DNA of 52,643 bases from NCBI GenBank assembly GCA_964431885.1, contig CAYSLK010000014.1, positions 1 through 52,643 on the forward strand. Reading direction: 5' to 3'. Below the pieces are notes generated by a model. It worked only from the letters and a program-made list of their open reading frames with translations. It was not told where the DNA came from and made no database searches. A program made the translations under genes and the position numbers. Shown here in pieces: positions 4,841 to 29,224 of the stretch. Source of the DNA: an uncultured Dehalococcoidia bacterium (lineage in GTDB: Bacteria; Chloroflexota; Dehalococcoidia; Lucifugimonadales; CAUZEB01). Positions within the stretch are counted from its first letter, which is position 1. The number at the start of each line of letters is the position of its first letter.

Positions 4841-4988
4841 TTTGACTCCTTAATAAATATTTTTCTATACTTTTGGTTTCAATATATTATTGGCCGACTA
4901 ATATCCTTGAGCATGAACAGCGAAACTAAAGTTAGTATAACCCAACGAATCATTAAGTGGACTCTTAATCGAATACAGCATTGGTTTA

Positions 4989-6152: not shown

Positions 6153-7160
6153 ATGTCAACTTTGACCACCGCACAGATTAAATCCTTTGAAAAAGAAGGA
6201 TATTTATTAGTTCAGAACCTATTGAATCCTGAAAGGATTTTGGATCCTTTGATAAATGAATATGAATTGGTATTAGACCGATTGGCTACCTCGCTTTACA
6301 ATAAAGGTGAGATTTCTTCTCTATTTAAAGGGTTAGATTTTAGTGATCGCATGATTGAAATCGTGAGGGAATCAAGAAGCTGTCATGCGCAATATTTCGA
6401 TATGCACCTTCCAATAAAAGATTGTAAGCTGGATACTCCTTTTTGGACCGGTCCTGCCGTATTTAACGTTCTAACGTCAGATGACTTATTGGACGCAGTG
6501 GAATCTCTCATCGGTTATGAAATTTACTCCAATCCTATTCAACACGTCCGTATAAAGCCGCCTGAAAAGTTCGTCCCTAAGAATAAGTACGGTGAACCAA
6601 TACTTGGTCGAACTATTTGGCATCAGGATCACGGAGTAACCACAGAAGAGGCGGATGAAACTCAGATGTTGACCGTGTGGATGTCATTACAAGATGCCAC
6701 AGTTGAAAAGGGACCCCTACTAGTAGTGCCAGGTAGCCACAAAACTGGCTTGTTGACCCATTGCCCCAATTATTTTGGTAATGGAGTAGCAACAGCCGGA
6801 CAAACCCAAATACCAGAACAATTGTTTGATGTCGAAAATTCCCTCCCACTGCCAACTAAAAGAGGGGACGTGATTTTTATGCACAAGCAAACTATTCATG
6901 GATCACTGCCAAATCTGAGCGATGAGGTAAGGTGGAGTCTAGACCTGAGGTATAATCCGATTGGACAGGCCACCGGCCGATCTGTATTTCCTGGTTTTGT
7001 AGCTCGTAGCCGTGTAAATCCGGAAAGCATACTTAGAGATCCTGAAGAATGGAATAACACGTGGCTGGCAACCCGTGAGAATATGTCCGTGATTAACCAA
7101 GGTGAGGAAGTCGAATTTAGGAGAACACGCTGGGATGGTGGTCAACTAGAATGCGCATAA
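6153..7160 (+). CDS. Phytanoyl-CoA dioxygenase (PhyH) family Fe(II)/2-oxoglutarate oxygenase
   Basis: HxD motif (WHQD), distal His (IHGSLPN), RWSLDLRY, VPGSH; AGGAGG RBS before ATG 6153. Confidence 0.9.
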   Translation: MSTLTTAQIKSFEKEGYLLVQNLLNPERILDPLINEYELVLDRLATSLYNKGEISSLFKGLDFSDRMIEIVRESRSCHAQYFDMHLPIKDCKLDTPFWTGPAVFNVLTSDDLLDAVESLIGYEIYSNPIQHVRIKPPEKFVPKNKYGEPILGRTIWHQDHGVTTEEADETQMLTVWMSLQDATVEKGPLLVVPGSHKTGLLTHCPNYFGNGVATAGQTQIPEQLFDVENSLPLPTKRGDVIFMHKQTIHGSLPNLSDEVRWSLDLRYNPIGQATGRSVFPGFVARSRVNPESILRDPEEWNNTWLATRENMSVINQGEEVEFRRTRWDGGQLECA

Positions 7161-13421: not shown

Positions 13422-14663
13422 TTAATCCACCCCAGGTGCAAGAAATCTAGATGTGAGAGCGCCTACGGTATCTCTTATTTCTCGGGCTATATTTTCATCA
13501 CCTATATTAGTCAATGTCTTTATCATTAGTTGAGCTATCTGTCGAGATTCGTTTACTCCAAAACCACGACTTGTAACTGCAGGACTACCTATCCTTAACC
13601 CGCTAGCGATCCTCGGTGGTCTTGGATCAAATGGAATAGCATTCCTATTGACAACAATGTTGACCCTTTCCAGTGATTCCTCAGCCTGTCTTCCAGTGAT
13701 ATCAAGTGGTGTCACGTCAACCAAAACCATATGATTGTCCGTCCCACCAGAAACCAAGCGTATACCTCCATCTCTTAAGCCTTCAGCCATTGCCTTGGCA
13801 TTTTCTCGTATAGACTTTTGGTACTGGATGAATTCAGGCCTCATAGCCTCCCCAAAAGCAACCGCCTTTGCAGCGATGCTGTGTTCCTGAGGTCCTCCTT
13901 GTGCGTTCGGGAATACAGCTCTATCGACCGTCTTTGCAATATCCGAATTGCATAGTATCATACCGCCTCTAGGACCTCTTAATGTCTTATGAGTTGTAGT
14001 TGTTACTATCTGGGCATAGGGAATACTAGACGGATGTTCACCAGCAGCTATAAGTCCCGAAATATGCGACACATCCGCCATCAACAGGGCTCCAACTTCA
14101 TCGGCTATCTCTCGAAAACGTTCGAAATCTATTGTACGAGAATAAGCCGTAGCTCCGGTTACTATCAGTTTAGGTCTGTATTCCTGGGCTATTTGTCGAA
14201 CTTGGGTGAAATCTATGAGTTCGGATTCTCTATCAACTCCATAAGACACAAAATTGTATAGTTTAGAGGAAAAATTGACAGGACTGCCATGAGTGAGATG
14301 TCCTCCATGGTCAAGACTCATTCCCATTACCGTGTCACCTGGACTTATTGTTGCAAAGTAAGCCGCCATATTGGCCTGGGCACCACTATGTGGTTGAACG
14401 TTAGCATGGTCAGCTTTAAATAAGATTTTTGCTCTCTCTATCGCTATCTTTTCAGCGACATCAACGAATTCACAGCCACCATAATACCTACGACCAGGGT
14501 ATCCTTCGGCATATTTATTCGTCAAAACAGAGCCTTGGGCTTCTAGCACAGCTTTACTAGCATAATTTTCTGAAGCTATCAAGTTAATAACGTTTCGCTG
14601 TCTCTCAATTTCCCCTAGAATTGCGGAACCAACTTCCGGATCTTGTCGCATTAGAACGTTCAC
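13422..14663 (-). CDS. glyA: Serine hydroxymethyltransferase
   Basis: [45 protein letters not shown]; GTG 14663 best spaced from AGGAG (ATG 14669 is an alternative). Confidence 0.97.
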
Positions 14664-14963
14664 TCTCATACTCCTACATTTGGATGATTGCACGTAAGTC
14701 AGATAAATTTTATCAACAATCTAATTTTACTCGTTATTGTCAAGACTATCTTAAATAAGTTCCTCATTTTACTCAAAAATAAAGGGTAAATCCCGATGTT
14801 AGATAAACCACAAAAGAATTTAAATGTTGTGTCGATACTCCACACAAAATTGGATTTTATAACCACAAAAAGGGAAATAGGATATCGGTGATTTATGGAC
14901 TAGTTGGCGATTATCCTTTATCCTGTAATACGGTGATAATCATACGGTTGCAAATGGAGAGAT

Positions 14964-16016
14964 ATGAAAAGCGGAGTCTTGAACAAGTTTTGGGATCACC
15001 TACCGGTGACTTCATCCACACCTAAATTCTCTCTTGGCGAGGGCGATACTCCGTTGGTTAAATCTCGGAAATTGTCTGAAATTGTAGGTTGTGAGGATCT
15101 ATATTTTAAGCTTGAAGGATGTAACCCTACAGGATCCTTTAAAGACCGTGGTATGGTCCTCGCAATAGCTAAAGCAATAGAAGATGGCGGAACACGAATC
15201 GCCTGTGCATCAACGGGCAATACGAGCGCATCAGCAGCAGCTTATGGAGCTTACTGCGGACTACCAACGACTGTATTTGTGCCCAAAGGGTACGTTGCCC
15301 AGGGTAAATTGGCCCAAGCAATTGCTTACGGCGCACGCATAATGCTTATAAAGGGGAATTTTGATGATGCACTAAGTCTTGTGCGTGAAATCACGCACAG
15401 ACATCCAGTTGTCTTGGTCAACTCATTAAATCCCTATAGGATCCAAGGCCAGAAAACAGCGTCGTTCGAGATAATTGAAGAACTGGGAAGCGCGCCCGAC
15501 TACTTGTTTATACCAGTTGGTAACGCAGGGAATATAACTGCCTATTGGGTAGGTTTTAAGGAAGCACTACTTAAGGGATGGACGAAGAATAGCCCAAAGA
15601 TGATGGGGTTCCAGGCTGAAGGCGCTGCTCCAATCGTAAGAGGAGCCCCAGTTGAGAAACCTGAAACGATTGCTTCAGCAATAAGGGTGGGCAATCCCGC
15701 CAGTTGGGAAAGCGCTTCTAAGGCCCGTGATGAATCTCAGGGTGTAATAGGTATGGTTTCTGATCAAGAAATCCTGGAGGCTTATGAAATAATGGCAAGT
15801 GGTGAGGGGATATTCTGCGAACCGGCATCAGCCACTTCAATAGCCGGCCTGTTAAAACTTGCTTCAGACGGCTTGAATTTAACAAATAAGAAAATTGTAT
15901 GTGTTATAACCGGGTCAGGATTAAAGGATCCCGAGCTTGCCGGAAAACTCGATACAGTTATGGAAGAATATCCTGCCGATCTAGCTGCAATAGAAAGAGC
16001 ATTAAACGTAACTTAA
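14964..16016 (+). CDS. thrC: Threonine synthase
   Basis: LGEGDTPL, NPTGSFKDRG (PLP Lys), ASTGNTSAS, PVGNAGN, ITGSGLKDP. Confidence 0.93.
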   Translation: MKSGVLNKFWDHLPVTSSTPKFSLGEGDTPLVKSRKLSEIVGCEDLYFKLEGCNPTGSFKDRGMVLAIAKAIEDGGTRIACASTGNTSASAAAYGAYCGLPTTVFVPKGYVAQGKLAQAIAYGARIMLIKGNFDDALSLVREITHRHPVVLVNSLNPYRIQGQKTASFEIIEELGSAPDYLFIPVGNAGNITAYWVGFKEALLKGWTKNSPKMMGFQAEGAAPIVRGAPVEKPETIASAIRVGNPASWESASKARDESQGVIGMVSDQEILEAYEIMASGEGIFCEPASATSIAGLLKLASDGLNLTNKKIVCVITGSGLKDPELAGKLDTVMEEYPADLAAIERALNVT

Positions 16017-16036
16017 TCAAGAGGTTAATAACTAAC

Positions 16037-16597
16037 TTGATAGACAGAGAGAAAATTAAAGAAGCTTTCGTGGACATAATTTCCTCTATAGGGGACGACC
16101 CAAACAGGGAAGGCTTACGCGATACGCCTGAGAGAGTCTCTATAATGTATGAGAAGTTATTCTCAGGTATACATGAGGATCCATCTTCAGTACTTTCCAC
16201 AGGATTTCAGGAAAGTCATGAAGAAGTCGTTATCGTAAGAGACATATCTTTTTTCTCTATATGCGAGCACCATTTTCTACCTTTTTATGGTTCAGCCCAC
16301 ATAGGCTATATACCAAATGGCAAAGTGATAGGTGCAAGTAAGATCGCTCGTGCTCTTGACATACTTGCCCGCCGACCGCAGTTGCAGGAACGCCTTACAG
16401 ACCAGATCGTAGATGCAGTACAAAACACGGTTAACCCAGATGGAGTGATAGCACTTCTTAGTGCTTCTCACATGTGCATGACTATCAGAGGAGTTGAAAA
16501 AACGGATAGCAAAATTGTTACATCAGCCAGCCGAGGCTCCTTTAAATCTCTTCCCAACAGACGGGAGGAGTTCTTTTCACTGCTTAGAGGAATCTAA
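16037..16597 (+). CDS. folE: GTP cyclohydrolase I
   Basis: REGLRDTPERV, CEHHFLPF, RRPQLQERLT, HMCMTIRG; start TTG 16037 after GAGG (track start overlaps thrC). Confidence 0.95.
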   Translation: MIDREKIKEAFVDIISSIGDDPNREGLRDTPERVSIMYEKLFSGIHEDPSSVLSTGFQESHEEVVIVRDISFFSICEHHFLPFYGSAHIGYIPNGKVIGASKIARALDILARRPQLQERLTDQIVDAVQNTVNPDGVIALLSASHMCMTIRGVEKTDSKIVTSASRGSFKSLPNRREEFFSLLRGI

Positions 16598-16599
16598 CT

Positions 16600-17583
16600 A
16601 TGATCACCATAACCACTACTAACAATTTCAGTTCTGTGTTGGCTGAATGGGAAACCCTCCTGCCAAGATGTCAGGCTAATACCATATTCCTGACACCACT
16701 GTGGCAAAAAATATGGTGGGAGCATTTTGGCGAAGGGTACGACCTGCAAATAATTTCCATTTATAAAAACGGCGAACCAATAGGTATAGCACCCTTAACG
16801 CTCCAGAATAATATCCTTACCTTTGTCGGGGATACAGATTTGTTTGATTACCATGATTTCATTGTGGCGGATGGAGAGGAAGATCCGTTCTATTCAGCAC
16901 TAACCGATCATATATCTAAATTGGAGTGGTCAAAGATCTCACTGAAATCAATTAGGCAGGACTCCCCCACTCTGCACTATTTACAAGCATTCGCAAAAAC
17001 CAACGGATATACTTGTAAGATCTCGGAGGAAGACACAGCTCCTACTACTAACCTAAGTCAAACTTGGGACGACTATTTGATGGGTCTTAATAAGAAACAC
17101 CGCCACGAACTTCGTCGTAAATTAAGGAGACTAGAAAAGGCCGAAACCTCTCAACAGTATATATGTAACAATCTAACGTCCATAGAGGCGGATATGCAGG
17201 ACTTCTTCCGATTGCACAAAGCTAGTAGTCCTGACAAGATGGAATTCATGACACTACAAAGGCAGAAGTTTTTTCTGGACACCGCTCTAAACCTCATCCC
17301 CAGAAACCAATTTAAGCTATATTTCTTGGAAATCGACAGTGTGCGTGTCGCATCTTGCATATGTTTCAACTATGCTGGCTCATACTTGTTATATAATAGC
17401 GGATATGACACGAACTACTCACATTGGAGCGTGGGCCTTCTAAATAAAGCCCTCTGTCTACGGGATGCAATTGAAGACGGTCAACACACTTTCGATTTCC
17501 TTAGAGGTAGTGAAAGATACAAGTATGAACTAGGGGGAAAAGACTGTTTCGTTTTTGAATTAAAGATAGATAAAGCCAATTAA
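16600..17583 (+). CDS. GNAT-fold protein, Acetyltransf_6/CelD-BcsL (FemAB-like) family
   Basis: TIFLTPLWQKIWW, DYHDF, WDDYLMGLNKKHRHELRRKLRRL, YNSGYD, FDFLRGSERYKYELG; 2 nt after folE stop. Confidence 0.82.
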   Translation: MITITTTNNFSSVLAEWETLLPRCQANTIFLTPLWQKIWWEHFGEGYDLQIISIYKNGEPIGIAPLTLQNNILTFVGDTDLFDYHDFIVADGEEDPFYSALTDHISKLEWSKISLKSIRQDSPTLHYLQAFAKTNGYTCKISEEDTAPTTNLSQTWDDYLMGLNKKHRHELRRKLRRLEKAETSQQYICNNLTSIEADMQDFFRLHKASSPDKMEFMTLQRQKFFLDTALNLIPRNQFKLYFLEIDSVRVASCICFNYAGSYLLYNSGYDTNYSHWSVGLLNKALCLRDAIEDGQHTFDFLRGSERYKYELGGKDCFVFELKIDKAN

Positions 17584-17895
17584 TTCTTCCGTATATTGCG
17601 GACACTTATATTAAAATGTCTGAATATTTAGTCACCCCTGACACGTAAGACAAATCACTTCCAAAGACAATTACTCTAGTACAATTATTTGATAATTCCC
17701 TGTGTTATCTTCAGTTTTGATAATCAGTTATTGTGGTTAAAATAGCATAATCTCCCAAAGAATCACATATTGAACCAAACGATTATAGATAGAATCTACG
17801 AGACCATTTCTCTGGTCCATGGGATGGATTAGACAGTATTTTTTTAAATACTCAAGGAAGTCCCGAGTATTGTCGAGCCCAAAATGGAGAGATAA

Positions 17896-19113
17896 ATGAA
17901 CAGACTGGCATTACTATCTTTTCACACCTGTCCAGCTGCACAACTAGGGACGAAGAATGCAGGTGGAATGAACGTATACGTGAGACAACTTGCGCAGGAA
18001 TTCGGCACTAGAGGCTATCAAGTTGACGTATTCACTCGATCTCATAACACAAAAGAGCCCAAGATAATCATATTGGGACCAAATACAAGACTGATTCACA
18101 TAGACGGAGGACCCTTCTCAACTTCAAAGGATGACTTATACTTACACACAGATTCATTTATTAGCAACTTATATGAATACGTTGCATTAGAAAATATTTC
18201 TTACGATATTATCCACAGTCATTATTGGTTGTCGGGCTATATAGGTCTTATATTGAATAGCAGATGGCAGATACCGCACATAACGACTTTCCACACACTA
18301 GGTAAAATTAAACTGTCTGCAAGGGCCGGTGAGAATGAATCTGCTGAACGTATATCCACCGAAAAAAAAGTTGTAGATGAAGTGCAAGGCATCATAGTAG
18401 CTACGGATCAGGAGAAAAAGGACCTGATTAAGCTATATGATATTCGAGGCAAAAAGATTCGTGTGATACCACCTGGTGTCAACCTGTCTACATTCCAGCC
18501 AATTTGCCAGGAAAAAGCAAGACGGCGTCTGGGTCTAAACGACGAGAAAATCATCTTGTATGTTGGTCGTGTGGAACCGTTAAAAGGATTACGGCTTTTA
18601 ATAAGAACTCTAACTTACATGGACAACACCCTCAATTTAAAATTGCTTATTGTGGGTGGTGATTTGAACAGAAATCAAGAAATCATCAACCTAGAGTTAC
18701 TGGCTACTAAACTAAACGTCGATAATATAGTTGAGTTTATCGGACCTGTGGAACACCAAAAATTACCCGTTTATTATAGCGCCGCTGATGCATTCGCATT
18801 ACCATCCTATTACGAGAGTTTTGGTTTAGTGGCACTTGAAGCTATGGCATGCCAAACTCCAGTTGTCGCATCCAGAGTCGGTGGACTTAAAACTATAGTC
18901 AAGAGCGGAGAGACCGGATACCTTATATCAAGGCGTTGTCCTGAGGCCTTCGCCCATAGACTAGAAATGTTACTGTCGAACTTTTACCTGCGACATAGCA
19001 TGGGTATCGCTGCACGATCGGCAGCACAAGACATGAGTTGGAAACGCTTAGCAAAAGAGACATTGAGTTACTATACTTCTTTCATCAAAAATGGTAATTC
19101 AGAACACTCCTGA
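17896..19113 (+). CDS. mshA: GT4 glycosyltransferase, MshA (D-inositol-3-phosphate glycosyltransferase)-like
   Basis: MshA-type motifs HTCPAAQLGTKNAGGMNVYV, HSHYWLSG, TFHTLGKIK, GRVEPLKG, PSYYESFGLVALEAMAC. Confidence 0.8.
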   Translation: MNRLALLSFHTCPAAQLGTKNAGGMNVYVRQLAQEFGTRGYQVDVFTRSHNTKEPKIIILGPNTRLIHIDGGPFSTSKDDLYLHTDSFISNLYEYVALENISYDIIHSHYWLSGYIGLILNSRWQIPHITTFHTLGKIKLSARAGENESAERISTEKKVVDEVQGIIVATDQEKKDLIKLYDIRGKKIRVIPPGVNLSTFQPICQEKARRRLGLNDEKIILYVGRVEPLKGLRLLIRTLTYMDNTLNLKLLIVGGDLNRNQEIINLELLATKLNVDNIVEFIGPVEHQKLPVYYSAADAFALPSYYESFGLVALEAMACQTPVVASRVGGLKTIVKSGETGYLISRRCPEAFAHRLEMLLSNFYLRHSMGIAARSAAQDMSWKRLAKETLSYYTSFIKNGNSEHS

Positions 19114-19127
19114 CGAAACCATGCCAC

Positions 19128-20039
19128 TTACAGCCGTTTTTCATACCAGACAGTCTGCCCAATTTTGTCAAATCCAAAAGACAGGTAAAGCTCTCGTGCT
19201 GGAACATTTTCAGCATCAACCTCGAGCTCAATAAAGTTAACATCTTGGGATTTCAAATAGGCGATTCCTGCAGCGACTACAGCCCTTCCTAGGCCTCGTC
19301 CTCTGTAATCAGGGTGCACACCAGTCATACCAATCGAACCGACGGAACAGTTGTCTTTAGATATTCTCTGTGTCCAAACATACGCCGACGGGTAATTCAG
19401 ATAATCCAGAAATATTATGCCCTCGGGTGCAGTGTCTTTCATTTTTGTTCTGGCGCTTATCTCTTCAACAGTATTGGGACAAAATCCCCAACTTGCTTCG
19501 AAAGCTTTGTTTTGCAGATCCGTTAATTGTTGTTCATCGATTCCTGTCTTGAATAAACGAAACGAATATTGAGTGGGGATTTCGACAGAGGAGATATCTT
19601 CTCTCTTACACATCATTTGCCAATAATTTTTCACATATTGGAATTTTGCTTCCTCAAGCAAATTTCGATAGATATCCTCCGAAGATGATATCTCAATATG
19701 TAACAAAGAAACGTCCAAATAATTGGCATGACTTACACTTCTTTCTAACAATAATTCTTCAACACCTTTGTATCTATGAGAACTGACGACACCGCCGGCT
19801 GTAACCGCCCTATCAATCGTCTTTTCGTTAGAGACAAGAGCGAAACCAACGAACTGACCATTATTTGTCTCCGCAATAAAGCAGTTTTCTTCTGGAATAA
19901 TTGAAGGCTGAGACAAAAACTGTCTCATATATTCCGTATCCCGGTATTTAACGGTATCAGTTAAATTGCTAACCTCATTATATAGCTTTGTATACCGATC
20001 TAGATCTTCCCAACAAAATTCCCGTACAAAATAAGACAC
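19128..20039 (-). CDS. Tandem-GNAT acetyltransferase, mycothiol synthase (MshD)-like
   Basis: 303 aa, two GNAT halves; C-half QNKAF...GVHPDYRGRGLGRA...LEVDAENVPARELYLSFGF; convergent with mshA-like gene. Confidence 0.7.
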   Translation of the reverse strand: MSYFVREFCWEDLDRYTKLYNEVSNLTDTVKYRDTEYMRQFLSQPSIIPEENCFIAETNNGQFVGFALVSNEKTIDRAVTAGGVVSSHRYKGVEELLLERSVSHANYLDVSLLHIEISSSEDIYRNLLEEAKFQYVKNYWQMMCKREDISSVEIPTQYSFRLFKTGIDEQQLTDLQNKAFEASWGFCPNTVEEISARTKMKDTAPEGIIFLDYLNYPSAYVWTQRISKDNCSVGSIGMTGVHPDYRGRGLGRAVVAAGIAYLKSQDVNFIELEVDAENVPARELYLSFGFDKIGQTVWYEKRL

Positions 20040-20185
20040 AAACTAATCTCCATGGGTTTACATAGAGTGAACATAATTACGAAAGGCTTAGTCAATCATA
20101 AATTAATTATGCTCAGATTCTATCAGAGGGAATAGGACCTAACAACGTAATAGCCGGATCAATAAGCTATTTCTGACGTAAGCAC

Positions 20186-20214
20186 TTGATTGTGAAGTTA
20201 GCAAGACATATCAT
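20186..20214 (+). promoter_or_regulatory. Candidate sigma70 promoter for the deacetylase-phosphatase pair
   Basis: TTGATT-N17-TATCAT, 41 nt upstream of ATG 20256. Confidence 0.5.
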
Positions 20215-20255
20215 TAACATGGCATTCTTTTTAAATCTCAATTAGGGCTGTAGAA

Positions 20256-20960
20256 ATGATAGAGCGACCTCAAAAAGCAATGGTTGTCACTCCGCATCCT
20301 GACGATGCCGAGATCGGCTGTGGCGGCACTATAGCAAAATGGGTAGCCGATGGAACAGAAGTAGTCTATGTCCTCTGCACCAACGGTGATAAAGGATCAT
20401 CTGATCTTCACATGACTTCGAAAAAACTAGCAAATATTAGAGAAAAAGAACAGAGTCTAGCAGCTCAGGCCTTGGGCATCAAAGAGGTTATATATCTGAG
20501 ATATCCCGACGGCGGACTTGAAGATACAGCTAAATTTAGGGAACAGATAACCAAAGCCTTAAGAATACATAGACCTGACATAGTGTTTTGTACTGACCCA
20601 TTTAAGCAAACATTTTACATGCACCGTGATCACCGTATATCGGGTCAGGTAACGCTGGACGCAGTGTTCCCCTATGCAAGAGATCACTTAAATTATCCAG
20701 AACACCTAAATGAGGGATTAATGCCACACAAGGTAGGGGATGTCCTCATGTGGGGTACAGACAAACCAGACACTTTTATCGATATTAGCGGCACTTTAGA
20801 TCAGAAGACAAATGCTTTAAAGAAACACGCCAGTCAGGTGTCTACTGACGGATCGGAAGGTGATGCTGGTGATTTTATAAAGTCTAATGCGCGAAGAGTA
20901 GGTGAGAATGCAGGCATGGCGTACGCAGAGGCATTTCGCCGTATTCAATTTCGCCGGTAG
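20256..20960 (+). CDS. PIG-L/LmbE family N-acetylglucosaminyl deacetylase (MshB/BshB-like)
   Basis: HPDDAEIGCGGT, TNGDKG, R-x-x-E, YPDGGL, HRDHR, HASQ motifs. Confidence 0.88.
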   Translation: MIERPQKAMVVTPHPDDAEIGCGGTIAKWVADGTEVVYVLCTNGDKGSSDLHMTSKKLANIREKEQSLAAQALGIKEVIYLRYPDGGLEDTAKFREQITKALRIHRPDIVFCTDPFKQTFYMHRDHRISGQVTLDAVFPYARDHLNYPEHLNEGLMPHKVGDVLMWGTDKPDTFIDISGTLDQKTNALKKHASQVSTDGSEGDAGDFIKSNARRVGENAGMAYAEAFRRIQFRR

Positions 20961-20970
20961 GTGAAATTGA

Positions 20971-21702
20971 ATGTACGATCTGCACGCTCACATTCTCCCA
21001 GGCGTAGATGATGGGGCTAAAACTATCGCTGAGTCACTTGATATCGCACGTGTAGCATATAAACATGGTACTAGGCATATTCTAGCAACTCCGCATAGAA
21101 AAGATGTTACAGAAAATTGGTCTATAGAACATATAGATGCCTTGATCAAGAGCCTTAACAAAGAAATTAAGGCCGATGGTCTAAATTTAACTGTCTATAG
21201 AGGTATGGAGAACCATCTTGATCTTAGCCTACCTGAAGAAATAAGAAATGGGAGAGCTCTTCCTATAAATGACTCCAAATATATCCTTATAGAACTACCT
21301 TTTTTCGGGATGCCCCTCTACGTGGAAGAGGTATTGCACCAAATTAAAGCCATGGACTTTATTCCCGTGCTAGTTCATCCTGAACGTATCGAAATGTTTC
21401 AACTGAACCTCGATTTACTGGCATCTTTCACCGATTTAGGAATGCTTACCCAAATAACCGCCGGCAGTATAGTGGGAACGTTCGGCCCCGAAGTAAAATC
21501 ATTAACCCTAGAGATACTTCGCAGAGGTTTGACAGATATAATAGCGTCAGATACTCACAGTCCTACAGGCCCTAGAAGCCCCAACCTAACTGCCGGCCTG
21601 AAACGAGCGGAGGTATTTATCGGGAAGGAAGCCGCTTCCAATATGGTCACTTCTAACCCAAAAAATATTTTCGACAATCAAGATTTTAAAGTCGGTAGTT
21701 AA
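20971..21702 (+). CDS. PHP-family phosphoesterase (CpsB/CapC/YwqE-like)
   Basis: DLHAHILPGVDDGA, ATPH, HPER, ASDTHS; 10 nt after deacetylase stop. Confidence 0.88.
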   Translation: MYDLHAHILPGVDDGAKTIAESLDIARVAYKHGTRHILATPHRKDVTENWSIEHIDALIKSLNKEIKADGLNLTVYRGMENHLDLSLPEEIRNGRALPINDSKYILIELPFFGMPLYVEEVLHQIKAMDFIPVLVHPERIEMFQLNLDLLASFTDLGMLTQITAGSIVGTFGPEVKSLTLEILRRGLTDIIASDTHSPTGPRSPNLTAGLKRAEVFIGKEAASNMVTSNPKNIFDNQDFKVGS

Positions 21703-21719
21703 CATTATTGAAAGCCAAT

Positions 21720-22172
21720 TCATTCCCCTGAACACCAACCGTCGATCTTGATTGGTGTTATAGTTAATATACAGAACTCCGTTTCCTTTATAGCTTTTTC
21801 TGCATATTTCGCACCTTCACTTTCGCCTTTATAATGCATAGAAATAGCTATAAGAAAATCCCAAATACCGTTATATGACTCCACAGCATTACCCTTTATG
21901 AGAACATATTGATAAGGCTCAGTATGACCAGCAATCGACAAAGTTACTCTTGCGTCTCTTTGTATATTACGCACTTTAACGGCTGTAGAAGCAGACATAA
22001 TTCTGATTTTCTCACCATCGTAAAGATGCCATACTGGTGTGACTTGTGGTGACCCGTCACGATTAATCGTAGCTAAATTGGTGATTATAGGTTTTTTAAG
22101 AAAAGCGTCCACATTTTCAGGTGTCAATTGTTTATTACTCCCAATTAGTTTCTCCATTCCACCTATTATCAT
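21720..22172 (-). CDS. PPOX-class (probably F420-dependent) split-barrel oxidoreductase
   Basis: LATINRDGSPQVTPVW, KVRNIQRDARVTL, YVLIKG. Confidence 0.85.
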   Translation of the reverse strand: MIIGGMEKLIGSNKQLTPENVDAFLKKPIITNLATINRDGSPQVTPVWHLYDGEKIRIMSASTAVKVRNIQRDARVTLSIAGHTEPYQYVLIKGNAVESYNGIWDFLIAISMHYKGESEGAKYAEKAIKETEFCILTITPIKIDGWCSGE

Positions 22173-22196
22173 TCTTAATCAGCAGTAGCATATATT

Positions 22197-22805
22197 CTAC
22201 TGCAACATGTCAGAAACTCTGCTCCACACAATTTCAGATAATCTTGTGATAGGCAAAGAAGAATCAATTACCAGCCAGCGCTCTGGATCTCTACTAGCAA
22301 GATCCAAGTATCCGGTTCGGATTCTATCATGGAATGTTTTGTCTTCTTGTTCTATTCTATCCAAATCTCTATTGGATTTCCTGGCAATACCCAATTCCAC
22401 AGGCAAATCTAACAAGACAACTAAGTCAGGTTTTAATCCTTTAGTTGCTAGGTTGTTTACGTTTTCTATTATATGTCGATCGAGTCCTCTACCATAACCT
22501 TGATAGCTTAAGGTTGAATAGATATAACGATCGCATATCACAATTGTCCCCTCCTGCAAGGAAGGTCGTATAACATTCTCCACTAGGGAAATCCTGGCAG
22601 CTGAAAATAAGAATAATTCAGCCATTGGTACAATATCCTTGCCAGATTTAATCCAAGTTGCTATCTTTTCTCCAGTAGGAGTGCTGCCCGGTTCTCTCAC
22701 TGTCCTAACAGTACGACCAGTTTCTGTAAGAATGTGATGAAGTTCGGAACACATTGTACTCTTGCCACTTCCTTCAACTCCTTCAAAAACAATGAATAGT
22801 CCCAT
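22197..22805 (-). CDS. tmk: Thymidylate kinase
   Basis: FEGVEGSGKST P-loop, REPG, CDRY, YQGYGRGL, DRIEQE; ATG at 22805. Confidence 0.95.
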   Translation of the reverse strand: MGLFIVFEGVEGSGKSTMCSELHHILTETGRTVRTVREPGSTPTGEKIATWIKSGKDIVPMAELFLFSAARISLVENVIRPSLQEGTIVICDRYIYSTLSYQGYGRGLDRHIIENVNNLATKGLKPDLVVLLDLPVELGIARKSNRDLDRIEQEDKTFHDRIRTGYLDLASRDPERWLVIDSSLPITRLSEIVWSRVSDMLQ

Positions 22806-22846
22806 TCGTATATTACCCTTCACAATTAAGATTTTACTAAGCCTGC

Positions 22847-22909
22847 AAATGAAGCTCATACGGTACTTGGGTTAAAAATTTAACCCAAGTACCGTATGAG
22901 CTTCATTTA
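22847..22909. repeat. Perfect 31-bp inverted repeat with 1-nt spacer
   Basis: AAATGAAGCTCATACGGTACTTGGGTTAAAA (22847-22877), A, then its exact reverse complement (22879-22909). Confidence 0.95.
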
Positions 22910-22957
22910 AATTAGTTATAACGAAGTAGAAATATTTATGTCTTTTAGGAGAATCAT

Positions 22958-24556
22958 TTACAGACGAGAGATTACTACGTGTCTGCTAGGTTCTCTTCCG
23001 GAACTAGCGGACTTTAGACCGTATTGGTCGGCAATTTGGTGCTGTAAATGACGGACATAAGAACCCTGAGGATGGAGTTCAATTTCTGCTTTTCCCTGGC
23101 CAATTTGTTGAACGGCTCTTTCAGCCTCTTTCACTGCGTTGGTCAGGAGCTCTTCTGATACTTTCTTTCCTTTTTTTCGTGAAATTGCCTTAATGAATTG
23201 TTCAATTTGTGTAACAGTATTCTTCCTCAACACATAAACTGGCTTACCTTTTTTTTCGGCCATTAGCAGCGCTTGGGTCCTACGCCGATAATAATTTTTA
23301 GTCGTTACCAAGAGGTCTGCTTCATCAATCCGAGATACAATCCCTATTGACCCATTAGTCTTGTGCAACGCATCTTGCAATTTGCCCTTGTTAACTCCAT
23401 ATGGGAGTATAGTTACCATTTTTTCAGGAACTTCTAAGACATCATCATTTCCAGATTCGACCGTGAGTGATCCACTTAGCGTAGGGGTATCTATAGCTTC
23501 CATTGACCTATCGTCTCTATTAGATATGAACGTTCTTTCTATTTGGCCATCATCATTGATAATACGGGTCTGGGGAGTGTAAGAAAATCCTCGTAATATT
23601 TTATCTACTACCTCCGTAACATCGGGATGGACTATTACTCTAGACCAACTTTGGATCTCTACCAAAGTGTCAAAAGTTGGAGGGGCTCTCCTTTCCAAAA
23701 CGCTCTTTTGGGTCCGTCGTCGACTCGCTTCTATATCACCCAAGGTTACTGATTGAATCCCTCCTACTAGATCTGACAAAGTTGGATTCATAATCAGGTT
23801 TTGGAGAGTATTACCATGGGCAGTAGCAACTAATTGTACGCCACGTTCAGCTATAGTCCTAGATGCATTCGCATCCAATTCTGTTCCTATTTCATCAATA
23901 ATAATAACTTCAGGCATGTGATTTTCTACCGCCTCTATCATCACCGAATGTTGATACTCCGGAGATCGGACCTGCATGCGTCTCGCACGACCTATACCAG
24001 GATGAGGAACATCACCGTCTCCCGCTATTTCATTTGACGTATCAACAACAATTACACGTTTATTCGCGTCATCTGCTAGGACACGGGCGACTTCCCGTAG
24101 CATAGTAGTTTTCCCAACACCAGGTTTACCCAATAATAATATACTTTTACCGGATGCTATAAGATCTTCAATAATTCTTACAGTCCCGTACACAGCTCTA
24201 CCGACCCTAACAGTCAGTCCAATAGTTCGACCGTTACGGTTACGTATAGCGGAAATACGATGAAGAGTCCTTTCTATGCCTGCCCTATTATCGCCGCCAA
24301 AGTCACCCACACAATCCATCACATACTGTATTTCTTCACTCGTGACCTCATTGGCACTGAGTATAAGAGTCTTATCTGGAAAGCGAGCCTCGGGAAGCCG
24401 ACCTAAATCGAGGATTATTTCCAGTAGATCCCCCATATCTTCTCTGTCTCTGATAACACCCTGAATGTTAGAAGGTAGCTTAACAAGCAAATCCTCTAAA
24501 TCAATATCAATTCTCTCTTGCAATTTTACGTTACGGTCTCCTTCTGTGCCAACCAT
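22958..24556 (-). CDS. AAA+ ATPase with C-terminal R3H domain (Ycf45/SpoIIIAA-like)
   Basis: GKPGVGKTT Walker A, IIIDEIG Walker B, DTSNEIAGDGD, C-terminal RHLQH (R3H); start probably ATG 24556. Confidence 0.88.
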   Translation of the reverse strand: MVGTEGDRNVKLQERIDIDLEDLLVKLPSNIQGVIRDREDMGDLLEIILDLGRLPEARFPDKTLILSANEVTSEEIQYVMDCVGDFGGDNRAGIERTLHRISAIRNRNGRTIGLTVRVGRAVYGTVRIIEDLIASGKSILLLGKPGVGKTTMLREVARVLADDANKRVIVVDTSNEIAGDGDVPHPGIGRARRMQVRSPEYQHSVMIEAVENHMPEVIIIDEIGTELDANASRTIAERGVQLVATAHGNTLQNLIMNPTLSDLVGGIQSVTLGDIEASRRRTQKSVLERRAPPTFDTLVEIQSWSRVIVHPDVTEVVDKILRGFSYTPQTRIINDDGQIERTFISNRDDRSMEAIDTPTLSGSLTVESGNDDVLEVPEKMVTILPYGVNKGKLQDALHKTNGSIGIVSRIDEADLLVTTKNYYRRRTQALLMAEKKGKPVYVLRKNTVTQIEQFIKAISRKKGKKVSEELLTNAVKEAERAVQQIGQGKAEIELHPQGSYVRHLQHQIADQYGLKSASSGREPSRHVVISRL

Positions 24557-24889
24557 TATTCTTCCTAGACAATCCTTTCGAACAGACCCGATTGGCACTT
24601 TTGTTATATATCCAATTTATCCTGGAAATACTCTAACCACACCACCCAGTGATAAATAACGTTAAAGCACTCACTTACTCGATACTTCTATCTAACTATG
24701 CAGCTCTAGCGTAGCTGCTCAATTCACAATATTGGAGCGCTAGGAAAGGATATAAACTGCAGTGGTTCTGACACAACAGAGCTATAATGGATGAGCCAAC
24801 AGAGAACGTAAATATGCCCTAAATTCCAAATTTCACAGCAAACTCATCCGCAGTGTTGACGAGAATTTGATAGCACACTACGTGACAAA

Positions 24890-25480
24890 TCAACGATAAC
24901 TAGCGTCCTCAACCATCTTAAGAAAGAATTCGTGAACCCTAGTGTCTTGGGTTAATTCCGGATGAAATGACGTGGCGAGTAGAGCATTTTGCCTAACAGC
25001 GACAGGACGACCATCATCCAGTTTCGCCAGTATTTCCACACCACTACCGACTCTATCAACAGCAGGTGCTCTTATAAATACAGCAATATAGGGCTCACAA
25101 CCTTTTATCTCCTCAATATCAAGATCAGCTTCGAAACTATCAACCTGCCTACCAAAAGCGTTACGACTAACGTCTATGTCCATTAATTCAAGAGGTTCAG
25201 GCCGGTGATCTGACAAACTCTTAGCCAAAACAATCATACCGGCACATGTACCCCATATAGGCATTCCCTCTTTAGCCTTTTCAGCCAAAGCAGCTCTAAA
25301 GTTGTAAATATCTATCAATTGGACGATAGTAGTACTTTCACCCCCGGGTATAATGAGGCCATCTATACTGTCCAATTGCCATGGAAGGCGAATCTCCGGA
25401 GCATCGACACCTATTTCCTTAAGCATTCTACGATGCTCCAAAAAGTCGCCCTGAATGGCTAGAACACCAATCGAAGTCAC
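24890..25480 (-). CDS. pdxT: PLP synthase glutaminase subunit
   Basis: GVLAIQGDF, PGGESTT, GTCAG, RNAFGRQVDSFE, FHPEL. Confidence 0.96.
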   Translation of the reverse strand: MTSIGVLAIQGDFLEHRRMLKEIGVDAPEIRLPWQLDSIDGLIIPGGESTTIVQLIDIYNFRAALAEKAKEGMPIWGTCAGMIVLAKSLSDHRPEPLELMDIDVSRNAFGRQVDSFEADLDIEEIKGCEPYIAVFIRAPAVDRVGSGVEILAKLDDGRPVAVRQNALLATSFHPELTQDTRVHEFFLKMVEDASYR

Positions 25481-25481
25481 C

Positions 25482-26381
25482 TTACCAACCTCTTACAGCT
25501 AGTTGTTCTGATTCAGGCATCGTTCTCACGTCAAGACCAGGCATAGCATCGCCAAGGCCTCGTGAAACTTCGGCTATAATATGAGGATCGTTATAGTGGG
25601 TAGTTGCTTTCACGATTGCCTGCGCCATGATGTCAGGTCTTTCGGATTTAAATATACCCGATCCTACAAATACTCCATCCACACCTAATTGCATCATTAG
25701 AGCTGCATCTGCAGGTGAGGCCACACCGCCAGCCGCGAAATTGACGACCGGAAGTTTGCCCAATTCCTTGACTTCTTTAACCAACTCGTAGGGAGCCCTT
25801 AGGTCTCTAGCAGTTGCCATCAATTCATCTTCTGACATATTCTGTATGCGGCGAATTTCTCCCATGACGGTTCTTGCATGCCTAACTGCTTCAACTATGT
25901 TCCCAGTCCCTGCTTCACCTTTGGTTCTAATCATAGCCGACCCTTCACCTATACGCCGTAAGGCTTCTCCCAAGTCACGACAGCCACATACGAACGGTAC
26001 TTTAAAGTCATGCTTGTTAATATGATTATTCTCATCTGCCGGAGTGAGTACTTCTGATTCATCAATATAGTCTACGCCCAAAGCCTCTAAAACCTGAGCT
26101 TCAACAAAATGACCGATCCGAGCTTTCGCCATTACCGGTATCGTTACAGCGGCTATTATTTCTGTAATCATGGTTGGATCAGACATACGTGCCACTCCAC
26201 CATCCTTACGTATATCGGAAGGTACACGTTCAAGAGCCATGACAGCACAAGCACCAGCATCTTCCGCTATTTTTGCTTGTTCGGGAGTAACGACGTCCAT
26301 TATTACCCCACCCTTAAGCATTTGGGCTAGTCCAGTTTTTACTCTCCATGTACCTGTTTCGGCCTTAACATCTACAGCCAT
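25482..26381 (-). CDS. pdxS: PLP synthase lyase subunit
   Basis: [47 protein letters not shown]; ATG 26381 after GGAGG. Confidence 0.97.
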
Positions 26382-26436
26382 ATATAACCTCCATTCTTTC
26401 TCAGTATTTTTCTGTTTTACTACATTAAAGCTAAGT

Positions 26437-26506
26437 AGCCAGTCCACTATAAAATACAAATGGTATAATACAAGAACCACTTCTGTGTATTTCTATGGTG
26501 CCACTT
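26437..26506. promoter_or_regulatory. Candidate PdxR operator region
   Basis: CCACT-core motifs (GTCCACTA 26442, AACCACTT 26475, TGCCACTT 26499) plus TGGTAT at 26461, between divergent pdxS and a MocR-family gene. Confidence 0.45.
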
Positions 26507-26522
26507 AGAGGGGAATAATATC

Positions 26523-28007
26523 ATGGAATCGACTATTGTGTCTTTAATGAGTTTAAAACTCCATCCCTATGATTCTGTTCCACTATATAGACAACTATAC
26601 GAACAGCTCCGTAATATTATTCTTAACGGCCAACTGCCGCCAGGTACGAAACTTCCCTCCACAAGAGGGTTATCAGATGAATTATCTATAGCACGAAATA
26701 CCGTGCTGAACGCATACGATCAACTTCTTGCTGAAGGCTACTTAAAAGGGCGGGTTGGCTCAGGGACTTACGTAGCCTCTGAACTTCCAGATGAATTACT
26801 TCAAGTCAGGGCAAATGCCAATCTTTCAGGCATTTCAAATAGGGCTAGTAGAACCCTTTCTCGACAAGGTGATTTAGTGGCTAGGTCATCCGTAAGTGAG
26901 CCGCACGACTTCGCAGTACCTAAGGCTTTTCGCCCTGGGCTCATGGCAATGAGTGTATTCCCTTTCAAGCTATGGGCCCGCCTTTGGGGTCGTCAATGGA
27001 GAAGAAGGTCATTAGATTTGCTTGGCTACGGAGATCCGACAGGGTACCGGCCACTTAGATTAATAACTGCTGAATATCTGAAGGTAGCTAGAGGTATACG
27101 TTGCGACGCTGATCAAATTATTGTCGTAGCCGGTTCACAACAGGCGCTGACCATAGCAACAAGAGTGCTTTTAAACGAAGGTGATGAAGTCTGGATGGAA
27201 GACCCAGGCTATCCAGGAGCACATGCAGCATTTAGGGGGGCAGGGGCGCGAGTACTACCCATACCAGTAGACATACAAGGCCTAGACATAGATCACGGCG
27301 TTTTGCATGGTGATGATGCTAAACTCGTTTATGCTACCCCCTCACATCAATATCCACTAGGTGTGACTATGACCCTTTCACGGCGACTTGAATTATTAGA
27401 TTGGTCTAGACGATCAAATGCGTGGATATTAGAAGATGATTATGACAGTGAATTTCGTTACACAGGTATGCCTCTAGCTGCTTTGAAAGGTCTAGATACT
27501 GAGGGACGCGTAATTTACATTGGATCTTTCAGTAAGATGCTATTTCCATCATTAAGATTGGGCTATATGGTTGTTCCGCCAGATCTAGTCGACACCTTTG
27601 CCGCTACTCGAGCCTTAATAGACAGAGGTTCGTCATCCCTCGACCAAGCCGTGCTAGCAGAATTTATATCGGAAGGCCATTTCGCCCGTTACGTTCGTCG
27701 AGCCCGCATGCTCTACGCCGAAAGACAGAAAACATTGGTTGACGCCGCAACAGATAAACTAGAAGGTCTGCTTGAAGTCCCACCTTCTGATTCGGGTATG
27801 CACTTGGTGGGATGGCTACCAGAAGGACTTGATGATCTAATAGCCTATAAAAAAGCAGCGCAGCATAATGTAGAAGCCCCACCACTTTCAGTTTACTATA
27901 CGGAATCTCCAGAAAGAGGGGGATTATTACTTGGATATACAGGGGTAGATACGTGCGAAATAAAGGAAGGTGTTAACAGATTGTCCCATGCACTCGAAAG
28001 TCTTTAA
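26523..28007 (+). CDS. pdxR: MocR/GabR family regulator (GntR wHTH + aminotransferase-like domain), probable PdxR
   Basis: PLYRQLY...KLPSTRGLS...ARNTV...LLAEGY wHTH; TPSHQYPLG, EDDYDSEFRY, GSFSKMLFPSLRLG; divergent from pdxST. Confidence 0.85.
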   Translation: MESTIVSLMSLKLHPYDSVPLYRQLYEQLRNIILNGQLPPGTKLPSTRGLSDELSIARNTVLNAYDQLLAEGYLKGRVGSGTYVASELPDELLQVRANANLSGISNRASRTLSRQGDLVARSSVSEPHDFAVPKAFRPGLMAMSVFPFKLWARLWGRQWRRRSLDLLGYGDPTGYRPLRLITAEYLKVARGIRCDADQIIVVAGSQQALTIATRVLLNEGDEVWMEDPGYPGAHAAFRGAGARVLPIPVDIQGLDIDHGVLHGDDAKLVYATPSHQYPLGVTMTLSRRLELLDWSRRSNAWILEDDYDSEFRYTGMPLAALKGLDTEGRVIYIGSFSKMLFPSLRLGYMVVPPDLVDTFAATRALIDRGSSSLDQAVLAEFISEGHFARYVRRARMLYAERQKTLVDAATDKLEGLLEVPPSDSGMHLVGWLPEGLDDLIAYKKAAQHNVEAPPLSVYYTESPERGGLLLGYTGVDTCEIKEGVNRLSHALESL

Positions 28008-29224
28008 TTATGATTCGAATTCAAGGCCTTCGTGTGATCCAAACTGACTGGTGAATTAAGCTCAAATGGACTTGAAAGACCTAACTCTTTACCAATTTCA
28101 CGGATGGCCGGTGCGACTTCCTCTCCTAGCAATCTGATACATGTCATTGAATCTTCATGGTTAACCCTGCCATGATTAGCGTATAACGATAATATGGACG
28201 GGCGTGTTTCTTCTAACAGAACCTTGAGTTGTTTAATCACTTGATCAGGAGTTCCAGCAATAATACTTCCTGACTCCAATTCATTTTGATAAGAATCATC
28301 CCTTTGCTGTTCCATGTCACGACGCAATTTCAGACGAGCGGCAGCAGAACTATAACCTGGTGGACTTAACCATTCAGGTTGAGTAGAACCCTTTCGCTCA
28401 CCACGTTGCATCCAGCGAAATTCTTCTCCGCCTTTCAAAGCCTTCTCCTCTGTTTCAGCGACATGGCATCGAATCAGGTATCCTCTTTGTTCCGGACCTG
28501 ATTCGTAACCCATTCTACTGGCCGTGTCATCATAGAGTTTCCAAATTGCCTTTGTGCTTTCTATAGTCGTATTGAGTGCGACATATGGATAACGATGTTC
28601 AGCTGCCCATACAATCGTCTCCAGGCTGGCCATTCCAGGAATCCATATTCTTGGATGCGGCTGCTGCAATGGTAATGCCCAGGGATTAACTACCCTAAGC
28701 TGATAATGATTTCCCTCCCACCTAAACGGACCATGTTCCGACCAGATTTTCATAATGATATCGTGCGCTTCTTTAAATCTTTCCCTGTTATACGCAGGAT
28801 TGACGTTGTTAGCGTATTGTTCTTGCCCGGCACCTCTCACAAATCCCGAAACGATACGTCCTTTGGATAACATATCCAGCATCGCGATCTCCTCTGCGAT
28901 CTGAATTGGATTATCTGTCACAGGCAAGGGATATCCCAGCAGAACTATCTTAATTTTCTCGGTCATGCCCGCTAATACTGAGGCGAATATATGAATCTTG
29001 GCTTGCATACAGAGAGGAGTGTTATGATGCTCATTAAGCATAATCCCATCAAAACCTACTTCTTCTGCATAAAGATATTCCTCAAGCCTCTCATTATACA
29101 ATCTACTCCCCTCGACAGGGTCAAAAAACTTGTTGGAAAAAACGAGATTATTACGACCTGCCTTTATCGCTTCCGATTCTGGATACGTCGACATAGGTTG
29201 TTCAGTAAAGTACATCAGGAACAT
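28004..29224 (-). CDS. Luciferase-like monooxygenase (LLM) family flavin-dependent oxidoreductase
   Basis: GFDGIMLNEHH, AEEIAMLDMLSKGR, GFVRG, PLQQPHPRIWIPG, IAGTPDQV. Confidence 0.9.
   Translation of the reverse strand: MFLMYFTEQPMSTYPESEAIKAGRNNLVFSNKFFDPVEGSRLYNERLEEYLYAEEVGFDGIMLNEHHNTPLCMQAKIHIFASVLAGMTEKIKIVLLGYPLPVTDNPIQIAEEIAMLDMLSKGRIVSGFVRGAGQEQYANNVNPAYNRERFKEAHDIIMKIWSEHGPFRWEGNHYQLRVVNPWALPLQQPHPRIWIPGMASLETIVWAAEHRYPYVALNTTIESTKAIWKLYDDTASRMGYESGPEQRGYLIRCHVAETEEKALKGGEEFRWMQRGERKGSTQPEWLSPPGYSSAAARLKLRRDMEQQRDDSYQNELESGSIIAGTPDQVIKQLKVLLEETRPSILSLYANHGRVNHEDSMTCIRLLGEEVAPAIREIGKELGLSSPFELNSPVSLDHTKALNSNHN

Follow-up and report, generated by a model that had tools for sequence, protein, structure and literature searches.

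A CpsB/YwqE-type PHP phosphoesterase behind a PIG-L deacetylase in marine Dehalococcoidia: candidate phospho-glycoside phosphatase of a mycothiol-like gene cluster

Here we describe a gene for a CpsB/YwqE-type PHP metal-dependent phosphoesterase (243 aa; positions 20971–21702, + strand) that stands directly behind a PIG-L de-N-acetylase gene, and near a gene for an MshA-like glycosyltransferase, in a 52,643-nt contig of an uncultured Dehalococcoidia bacterium (CAYSLK010000014.1; the whole stretch analysed, hereafter the window). With roughly even confidence we propose that this enzyme removes the phosphate from the phospho-glycoside that the neighbouring transferase would make, and is thus a functional analogue, in a mycothiol-related pathway of the Dehalococcoidia, of the actinobacterial step called MshA2, in which N-acetylglucosaminyl-inositol-phosphate (GlcNAc-Ins-P) loses its phosphate. 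A phosphatase of a type associated with polysaccharides and bacterial tyrosine kinases (BY-kinases) would then have been recruited, in one Dehalococcoidia lineage, into a mycothiol-like small-molecule pathway. The host is a 2.06-Mb metagenome-assembled genome (MAG) from seawater, in 187 contigs, 95.7% complete with 6% contamination, of which the window (G+C ~41%) is contig C14. Twelve marine or seawater sequencing runs hold at least half of the window's sampled words, the PHP gene is most closely related to genes of Dehalococcoidia MAGs, one of them SAR202, and the host group is abundant in marine settings.

That a CpsB/YwqE-like PHP gene occupies this place had been claimed in an earlier reading of the DNA (the original prediction), and is borne out by the open reading frame (ORF), by the deacetylase stop (TAG, 20958–20960) and PHP start (ATG, 20971), which leave a gap of exactly 10 nt, and by a match to the Pfam family CpsB_CapC (PF19567; 173.2 bits against a cut-off of 27) in which protein residues 2–234 align to profile positions 2–233 of 234. 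It is the one PF19567 gene in the whole host genome. The closest solved structures are YwqE (3qy6; 135.7 bits, E = 1.6e-38) and then CpsB (3qy8 and 2wjd; 73 bits), while with 96.5 bits the protein stays far below the cut-off of model NF041488 (400) and is not a Cps4B equivalog. An AlphaFold 2 model built with 35 homologues (pLDDT 96.5, pTM 0.93) aligns with a TM score of 0.90 to 3qy6 and 0.89–0.90 to 2wjd and 3qy8 in a Foldseek search, the next hits being amidohydrolases at ~0.6, and identity over the structural alignment is 33% to YwqE and 26% to CpsB. Residues D3, H5, H7, D13, D14, H42, H136, E138, R139, D194, H196 and R202 are invariant in the 35 aligned homologues, and E80 and E108 nearly so. 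Ten of these positions (H5, H7, H42, E80, E108, H136, D194, H196, R139 and R202), which we take from YwqE and CpsB to be the metal and phosphate ligands and the conserved arginines, are all kept in the window protein and are invariant or nearly invariant also across 84 aligned homologues. Because the family match is full length, the fold agrees and the ligand residues are all intact, this is a genuine and probably active member of the CpsB/YwqE subfamily.

The partners with which such enzymes normally work were not found in the host. Scans of the Pfam and NCBIfam libraries covered 15 window ORFs (13422–29224), and three genome-wide family searches, for BY-kinases (TIGR01007), Wzz (PF02706) and priming sugar transferases (Bac_transf, PF02397), covered the rest of the window. 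The best BY-kinase match in the whole host genome reached 29 bits (cut-off 108) and the best Wzz match 21 bits (cut-off 25.5), both on contigs other than the window, and the priming sugar transferase model gave no match in the genome. The claim of the original prediction that the window holds no tyrosine kinase or capsule genes is therefore upheld as far as these three families reach, and the BY-kinase and Wzz partners that characterize CpsBCD and YwqCDE systems were detected neither beside the PHP gene nor elsewhere in the MAG.

In relatives, the PHP gene is found behind the same deacetylase. A PHP query yielded 80 loci, 32 of them from Dehalococcoidia (PHP identity 45–81%); a PIG-L gene lies immediately 5' of PHP in 27 of these 32, an MshD-like gene does so in four, and the last copy lies at a contig edge. 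Half of the Dehalococcoidia loci (16/32) carry an MshA-like gene within 8 kb of PHP and 20/32 an MshD-like gene, and the nearest relative of the window PHP, 81% identical, has the same neighbours. The PIG-L–PHP pair stays together even where the other cluster genes have been rearranged, split or duplicated, and in all five genomes with a solitary pair an MshA-like gene occurs elsewhere. The remaining 48 loci, from Mesorhizobium, Nitrospirota, Bowmanella, Acholeplasmataceae, Gemmatimonadaceae and Bacillota (28–38% identity), lack these neighbours.

The same association is seen elsewhere in the class. In a sample of 201 Dehalococcoidia genomes, a PHP homologue (E <= 1e-5) was present in 44, an MshA-like gene (TIGR03449, E <= 1e-60) in 154, a PIG-L gene (E <= 1e-25) in 162 and a BY-kinase (E <= 1e-15) in 57, of which 43 score over the cut-off of the model. 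We called a PHP linked when a PIG-L gene lies no more than ~400 bp away or an MshA-like gene no more than 5 kb, and sorted the 44 PHP-positive genomes by match coordinates and 31 fetched loci. By this definition 26 genomes from eight GTDB families have a linked PHP, at identities to the window protein down to 33–35% (family f9). The other 18 are unlinked, among them a doubtful partial match of 26% identity (G088) and a copy on a 3.1-kb contig that cannot be judged (G045). BY-kinases (TIGR01007) were found in only 3/26 linked-PHP genomes as against 15/18 unlinked ones (by family, 3/8 against 8/11); we give no P-value for this contrast because related genomes are not independent. In five further linked-PHP genomes, three of them titled chromosomes, no BY-kinase was found. 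Phylogenetic profiling had been named beforehand as a test of the proposal, and the orthologues do travel with PIG-L and MshA-like genes and not with BY-kinase loci, while the closest homologues outside Dehalococcoidia and Nitrospirota sit in kinase and export loci.

These outside loci are of the classical kinase and export type. In Bowmanella a Wzz-GNVR-AAA_31 kinase and a Poly_export gene directly precede PHP, in Mesorhizobium Poly_export, a Wzz/AAA_31 kinase and Wzy_C adjoin it, and in Acholeplasma the gene order is Wzz, AAA_31, PHP. The PHP neighbours at the one Nitrospirota locus scanned (L064) are an aspartokinase, a phosphoglycerate-mutase-like gene and TonB. Among the unlinked Dehalococcoidia PHPs, which are basal, a nucleotidyltransferase gene adjoins PHP in six of nine scanned loci (L094, L104, L105, L109, L113 and L117); the four of them compared with NCBIfam all match rmlA models, three as rmlA_long (466–489 bits against 320) and the shorter L104 protein below the cut-off. 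Neither Wzz nor AAA_31 was found among 18 flanking ORFs scanned at the nine basal loci, which are part of the flanking ORFs there, and these genomes mostly do have BY-kinases, located on other contigs. Both L105 and L101 have a B12-binding radical SAM gene following; in L101 it is not a nucleotidyltransferase that adjoins PHP.

A quick IQ-TREE phylogeny of 84 PHP sequences, from which 27 of 31 near-identical Mesorhizobium rows had been removed beforehand, joins Dehalococcoidia and Nitrospirota in one group (67 rows, SH-aLRT 96) and recovers a Dehalococcoidia group (61 rows, SH-aLRT 89) as well as a linked clade (45 rows, SH-aLRT 97). Of the 45, 38 are PIG-L-adjacent, four are MshD-adjacent and one lies near an MshA-like gene. 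Two rows remain: one is a contig-edge copy with the same sequence as a linked PHP, the other an incomplete gene. One PIG-L-adjacent sequence (G033) falls just outside this clade, and two more (G029 and G064) sit on very long branches near the midpoint root, where their placement is unreliable. Seven positions are conserved at >=90% in the linked clade, are shared by the window protein and differ in the kinase-linked group (A39, D45, M79, N81, L122, V133 and G200), and five of them flank ligands: A39 and D45 near H42, M79 and N81 around E80, and G200 near R202. At an eighth clade-specific position, 189, the linked clade has H and the window protein D, as in the kinase-linked group. The picture suggested by tree and gene order is of an ancestral PHP tied to polysaccharide synthesis, one descendant lineage of which would have moved behind a deacetylase, in genomes mostly without a BY-kinase found.

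The genes with which the PHP travels suggest a phosphorylated glycoside as its substrate. The transferase gene (17896–19113, + strand, 405 aa) encodes a GT4 glycosyltransferase whose closest solved relatives are MshA of Corynebacterium glutamicum (273.8 bits) and then the cyanobacterial sucrose-phosphate synthase 6kih (242 bits); with the MshA equivalog model TIGR03449 it scores 373 bits against a cut-off of 462.5, with BshA 124 and with the sucrose-phosphate synthase domain 106. Sucrose-phosphate synthase uses a phosphorylated acceptor. Residues K78, Y110, T134 and R154, presumably the phosphate ligands of C. glutamicum MshA, are all kept in the window transferase, and in sucrose-phosphate synthase the corresponding residues are R, Y, S and R, either kept or conservatively replaced. 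Since sucrose-phosphate synthase shares them, the kept residues argue that the acceptor is phosphorylated, whatever its identity, and do not single out inositol. A phosphatase step is to be expected, because the transferase's two closest characterized relatives both take phosphorylated acceptors. For MshA this is part of the mycothiol scheme, in which a phosphatase acts next and the deacetylase directly after it, as given in one review (PMC6178380). In another, the MshA product is dephosphorylated by 'an unidentified phosphatase' (PMC7278568), which agrees with the original prediction that no MshA2 gene is firmly identified; within the sections of main text available, the mycothiol literature names the 'phosphatase MshA2' step, and we found no paper there that assigns a gene to it. 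Similarly, among the top-ranked papers on mycothiol or mshA together with SAR202, Dehalococcoidia or Chloroflexi we found no description of this cluster.

Three further enzymes of the cluster fit a pathway of this kind. The PIG-L de-N-acetylase (20256–20960, + strand, 234 aa) is MshB/BshB-like (PF02585, 120.3 bits) and scores below the cut-offs of all equivalog models, with BshB1 (116 bits) ahead of BshB2 (72) and of MshB (56, cut-off 224). Between it and the transferase, and divergent from the deacetylase, is a gene for an MshD-like GNAT acetyltransferase (19128–20039, − strand, 303 aa; MshD model TIGR03448, 77 bits over residues 51–299 against a cut-off of 163, with GNAT Pfam matches). Immediately upstream of the transferase stands a 327-aa GNAT protein of the PF13480 (Acetyltransf_6, Fem/CelD-like) type (16600–17583, + strand; 82 bits, with FemAB_like at 19.5 bits below its cut-off); most related loci, with PHP or lacking it, also have it in front of the MshA-like gene. 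In most of 20 PHP-less Dehalococcoidia loci (L120–L139), some of them in small closed genomes of 1.4–1.9 Mb, the Fem-like GNAT, the MshA-like gene and PIG-L form a tight module in which the MshD-like GNAT is optional.

We can thus outline a putative route. Inositol phosphate would be supplied by the inositol-3-phosphate synthase encoded elsewhere in the genome (TIGR03450, 541.7 bits), and the MshA-like transferase would join it to UDP-GlcNAc, giving GlcNAc-Ins-P. The PHP enzyme would remove the phosphate, before or just after de-N-acetylation; the PIG-L enzyme, apparently co-translated with it, would free the amine; and the Fem-like and MshD-like GNATs would then acylate the product. That inositol phosphate is the acceptor is itself conjectural. 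The synthase was found in 167/201 class genomes with TIGR03450. Used at 1e-40, this model missed genus g30 (0/6) and most of family f19, which at first counted as an objection to an inositol acceptor; the objection was dropped when a re-test with PF01658 matched a longer synthase type in all five missed genomes that were re-examined. The canonical equivalogs are not reached in the host (MshA, MshD and MshB all fall short, at the scores given above), and the end product may not be mycothiol, because the host has no MshC equivalog; it may be that the Fem-like GNAT provides an amide-forming step in place of the MshC ligase. The original prediction, that the PHP may act on a sugar-inositol phosphate rather than on phosphotyrosine in proteins, is partly supported: it has passed its comparative test, whereas a canonical mycothiol pathway was not recovered and the actinobacterial MshA2 is not assigned. 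A broader version of the proposal is that the whole PHP clade of marine Dehalococcoidia (SAR202 relatives) switched from phosphotyrosine to a phospho-glycoside and is the dedicated MshA2-type phosphatase of an undescribed, class-wide glucosaminyl-inositol pathway, in which a Fem-like GNAT, possibly aminoacyl-tRNA-dependent, replaces MshC; we hold this version tentatively, leaning slightly towards doubt.

The deacetylase and PHP genes may be expressed together. A ribosome-binding-like motif (AGGTGA, 20959–20964, + strand), read from the sequence 6 nt 5' of the PHP start codon, overlaps the deacetylase stop, an overlap from which translational coupling of the two genes may be inferred. One sigma-70-like site (TTGATT-17-TATCAT, 20186–20214, + strand), a possible promoter only, lies in the divergent intergenic region 5' of the deacetylase and none was seen between deacetylase and PHP; a common promoter, as assumed in the original prediction, is no more than plausible. 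The promoter and terminator scan of the locus was rejected as evidence, since its total of four sites is not above chance (6.7 in shuffles) and carries no weight. Metatranscriptome contigs of at least 99% identity, from four libraries of four studies, map to parts of the transferase, deacetylase and PHP genes, and one of 151 nt crosses the deacetylase/PHP junction (20873–21023); their support is weak.

Several observations weigh against our proposal. To our knowledge all characterized members of the CpsB/YwqE PHP subfamily are protein-tyrosine phosphatases, and the catalytic residues and fold of the window protein are the same as theirs; structure prediction, another check suggested beforehand, did give a confident PHP fold, but one whose catalytic site cannot be separated from that of YwqE and CpsB. 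The adjacency kept in a single clade owes something to common descent and does not count as independent evidence, no PIG-L–PHP or glycosyltransferase–PHP fusion was found in a weak search (proteins of 427–2000 aa, E <= 1e-10), and contigs from RNA libraries do not prove transcription, because DNA carry-over is possible and a contig does not delimit a transcript. The transferase–deacetylase module, in about 155–160/201 genomes and thus nearly class-wide, is far commoner than PHP (44/201, about a fifth), so that most lineages would run the presumed pathway without it, and no recurrent substitute phosphatase was found at the PHP position in the 20 PHP-less loci. As the transferase scores below the MshA equivalog cut-off, its acceptor is not established, and two genes of the inositol monophosphatase (IMPase) family in the host could perform the phosphate removal instead. 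Finally, in two relatives of the same order, with genomes of 1.3–1.4 Mb, the PIG-L-adjacent PHPs have lost metal ligands: G064 (locus L108, contig G064:C9) has H5K, E80S, D194E and R202L, and G029 (L114, G029:C10) has H5N, H7K, D13Y, H42S, H196V and R202D. From these substitutions the two copies look to be decaying or non-catalytic, and PHP activity would be dispensable in their lineages, since several ligands are gone.

How far do these points favour other explanations? One is that the PHP is still a protein-phosphotyrosine phosphatase whose kinase is non-classical or lies in the unassembled part of a MAG that is 95.7% complete, its position being regulatory (for example of the cluster's enzymes) or inherited synteny. 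The full-length CpsB_CapC match and the YwqE/CpsB-like fold and catalytic residues are what such an enzyme should have; its basal sisters co-occur with BY-kinases (15/18 genomes) and with a nucleotidyltransferase neighbour (6/9), which is a polysaccharide context, and most carriers of the transferase–deacetylase module do without PHP. We nonetheless think this distinctly unlikely, as BY-kinase, Wzz and priming transferase were not found in the host genome, BY-kinases were found in few linked genomes (3/26 in our sample, 0/5 further ones), and the PIG-L–PHP pair outlasts rearrangement, splitting and duplication of the cluster around it. This persistence bears equally on the idea that the PHP is a small-molecule phosphoesterase of the cluster with some other substrate, be it another phosphorylated precursor or a phosphodiester intermediate, or with a role in salvaging or recycling the end product: it is with the deacetylase, the enzyme that acts directly after the phosphatase in the mycothiol scheme (PMC6178380), that it pairs most tightly and most persistently, and the genes present predict no other phosphorylated intermediate. 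A different substrate is thus unlikely, though it gains from a transferase that is no MshA equivalog and almost as close to sucrose-phosphate synthase, from IMPase-family genes that are available for a simple monoester step, and from further phosphoesterases in or beside the clusters of relatives (calcineurin-like in L010, PAP2 in L120), because of which more than one phosphate-removing step may exist.

The last alternative, that the gene is a decaying remnant without current function in the host, takes its force from the two degenerate copies at the same position in same-order relatives and from the patchy distribution of PHP in the class. It is highly improbable for the window copy, which is full length with every catalytic residue intact, has a very confident structural model, is 81% identical to a nearest relative with the same neighbours and is matched by near-identical contigs in RNA libraries. 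The explanation we prefer remains a phosphatase for the phospho-glycoside product of the MshA-like transferase.

Comparison with known systems sets the limits of this proposal. YwqE of Bacillus subtilis and CpsB/Cps4B of Streptococcus pneumoniae are PHP-fold, metal-dependent protein-tyrosine phosphatases (3qy6, 3qy8, 2wjd), and the window PHP shares their Pfam family, fold, His/Asp/Glu metal ligands and two arginines. It differs in standing behind PIG-L in an MshA-like cluster, in having no BY-kinase or Wzz partner found in its genome, in the clade-specific residues beside its ligands and in its predicted phospho-glycoside substrate. With the MshA2 step it shares its predicted place, where it would act on the output of an MshA-type transferase and ahead of a PIG-L-type deacetylase, both of which are encoded with it; unlike mycothiol producers, the window organism has no MshC equivalog, and its transferase and MshD-like protein score below the equivalog cut-offs. 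Among 14 control genomes PF19567 was found only in B. subtilis, and not in C. glutamicum (other Actinobacteria were not searched). For this reason the window PHP does not assign the actinobacterial MshA2, of which it is at most a functional analogue in another phylum. The sucrose-phosphate synthase/phosphatase pair, whose synthase is the transferase's second-best solved relative and of the same GT4 sub-group, offers a parallel in which a phosphorylated glycoside is made and then handed to a dedicated phosphatase. The sucrose-phosphate phosphatase known so far is a HAD-superfamily enzyme rather than a PHP one; in the window cluster the next step is a deacetylation, and this implies GlcNAc as the donor. 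The PHP trinuclear-metal scaffold does hydrolyse small phosphomonoesters, in HisK-type histidinol-phosphate phosphatases and in TrpH/YciV-type 3',5'-nucleotide bisphosphate phosphatases; the window PHP gave no Pfam or NCBIfam match to either family.

The proposal ties a specific enzyme genetically to a mycothiol-type phosphatase step, which makes the step directly assayable. If it is correct, a family annotated throughout as capsule tyrosine phosphatase has been re-used in small-molecule metabolism, which bears on automatic annotation; and if the switch is clade-wide, it would give this PHP subfamily its first small-molecule substrate and the step its first genetically linked phosphatase in any organism. 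The cluster also hints at a low-molecular-weight amino-sugar-inositol compound, possibly a thiol, across the Dehalococcoidia.

A number of further features of the host and its relatives were seen in passing. At C180:7346–10653 (locus L004), the end of the host's inositol-3-phosphate synthase gene (541.7 bits against the mycothiol_INO1 cut-off of 638) overlaps the beginning of a gene for a second GT4 protein of 408 aa, which suggests a second inositol-phosphate-using pathway. A PIG-L query matched four places in the host genome, including a 51%-identical paralogue at C10:13126–13791, and several relatives in family f9 carry two tandem PIG-L genes 5' of PHP. Two host genes resembling cysteinyl-tRNA synthetase (C135:1814–2998 and C103:2522–3430), of which one adjoins ispD/ispF and the other, truncated where its contig ends, adjoins pyruvate kinase, were considered for the MshC role and rejected, since both score as cysS (516 bits, and 337 for the cut copy) and neither reaches the MshC cut-off; the second cysteine-tRNA ligase gene could be a paralogue or contamination.

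Other hydrolase genes occur near the module in relatives. In L010 the MshA-like and MshD-like genes are separated by an insertion (4564–6208) that encodes a DUF502 membrane protein and the calcineurin-like metallophosphoesterase, a second phosphoesterase of the cluster, and an ORF of like size and like start lies at the same place in L012, L013, L014 and L017 (only the L010 pair was scanned). The PAP2 phosphatase gene at PHP-less L120 (3810–4334) adjoins PIG-L. A 216-aa protein with a metallo-beta-lactamase fold, possibly akin to glyoxalase-II-type thioester hydrolases, is encoded directly 3' of PIG-L in L130 (6588–7238) and L132; in L123 the similar ORF stands at the opposite end of the cluster, past the Fem-like gene (of the three, L130 is the one scanned). 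Non-orthologous displacement of PHP was considered and could not be shown, as the PHP-less loci offered only the one PAP2 gene, this one metallo-beta-lactamase-fold gene type and unrelated neighbours.

Within the window, the cluster is preceded by genes for SHMT (13422–14693, − strand), ThrC (14964–16016, + strand) and FolE (15899–16597, + strand), and followed by an F420-type PPOX gene that is convergent with PHP (21720–22172, − strand) and a dTMP kinase gene (22197–22859, − strand). The next gene (22958–24598, − strand) encodes a 546-aa protein that combines an AAA/SpoIIIAA-like ATPase, an R3H domain and a match to Pfam 'PTPase' (PF25516, 69 bits); it is kept 3' of the cluster in several relatives, and no link to the PHP was seen. 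Beyond it, at 24890–28007, PdxT (SNO) and PdxS (SOR_SNZ) beside a divergent PdxR-like GntR-aminotransferase fusion form an ordinary unit for pyridoxal-phosphate synthesis.

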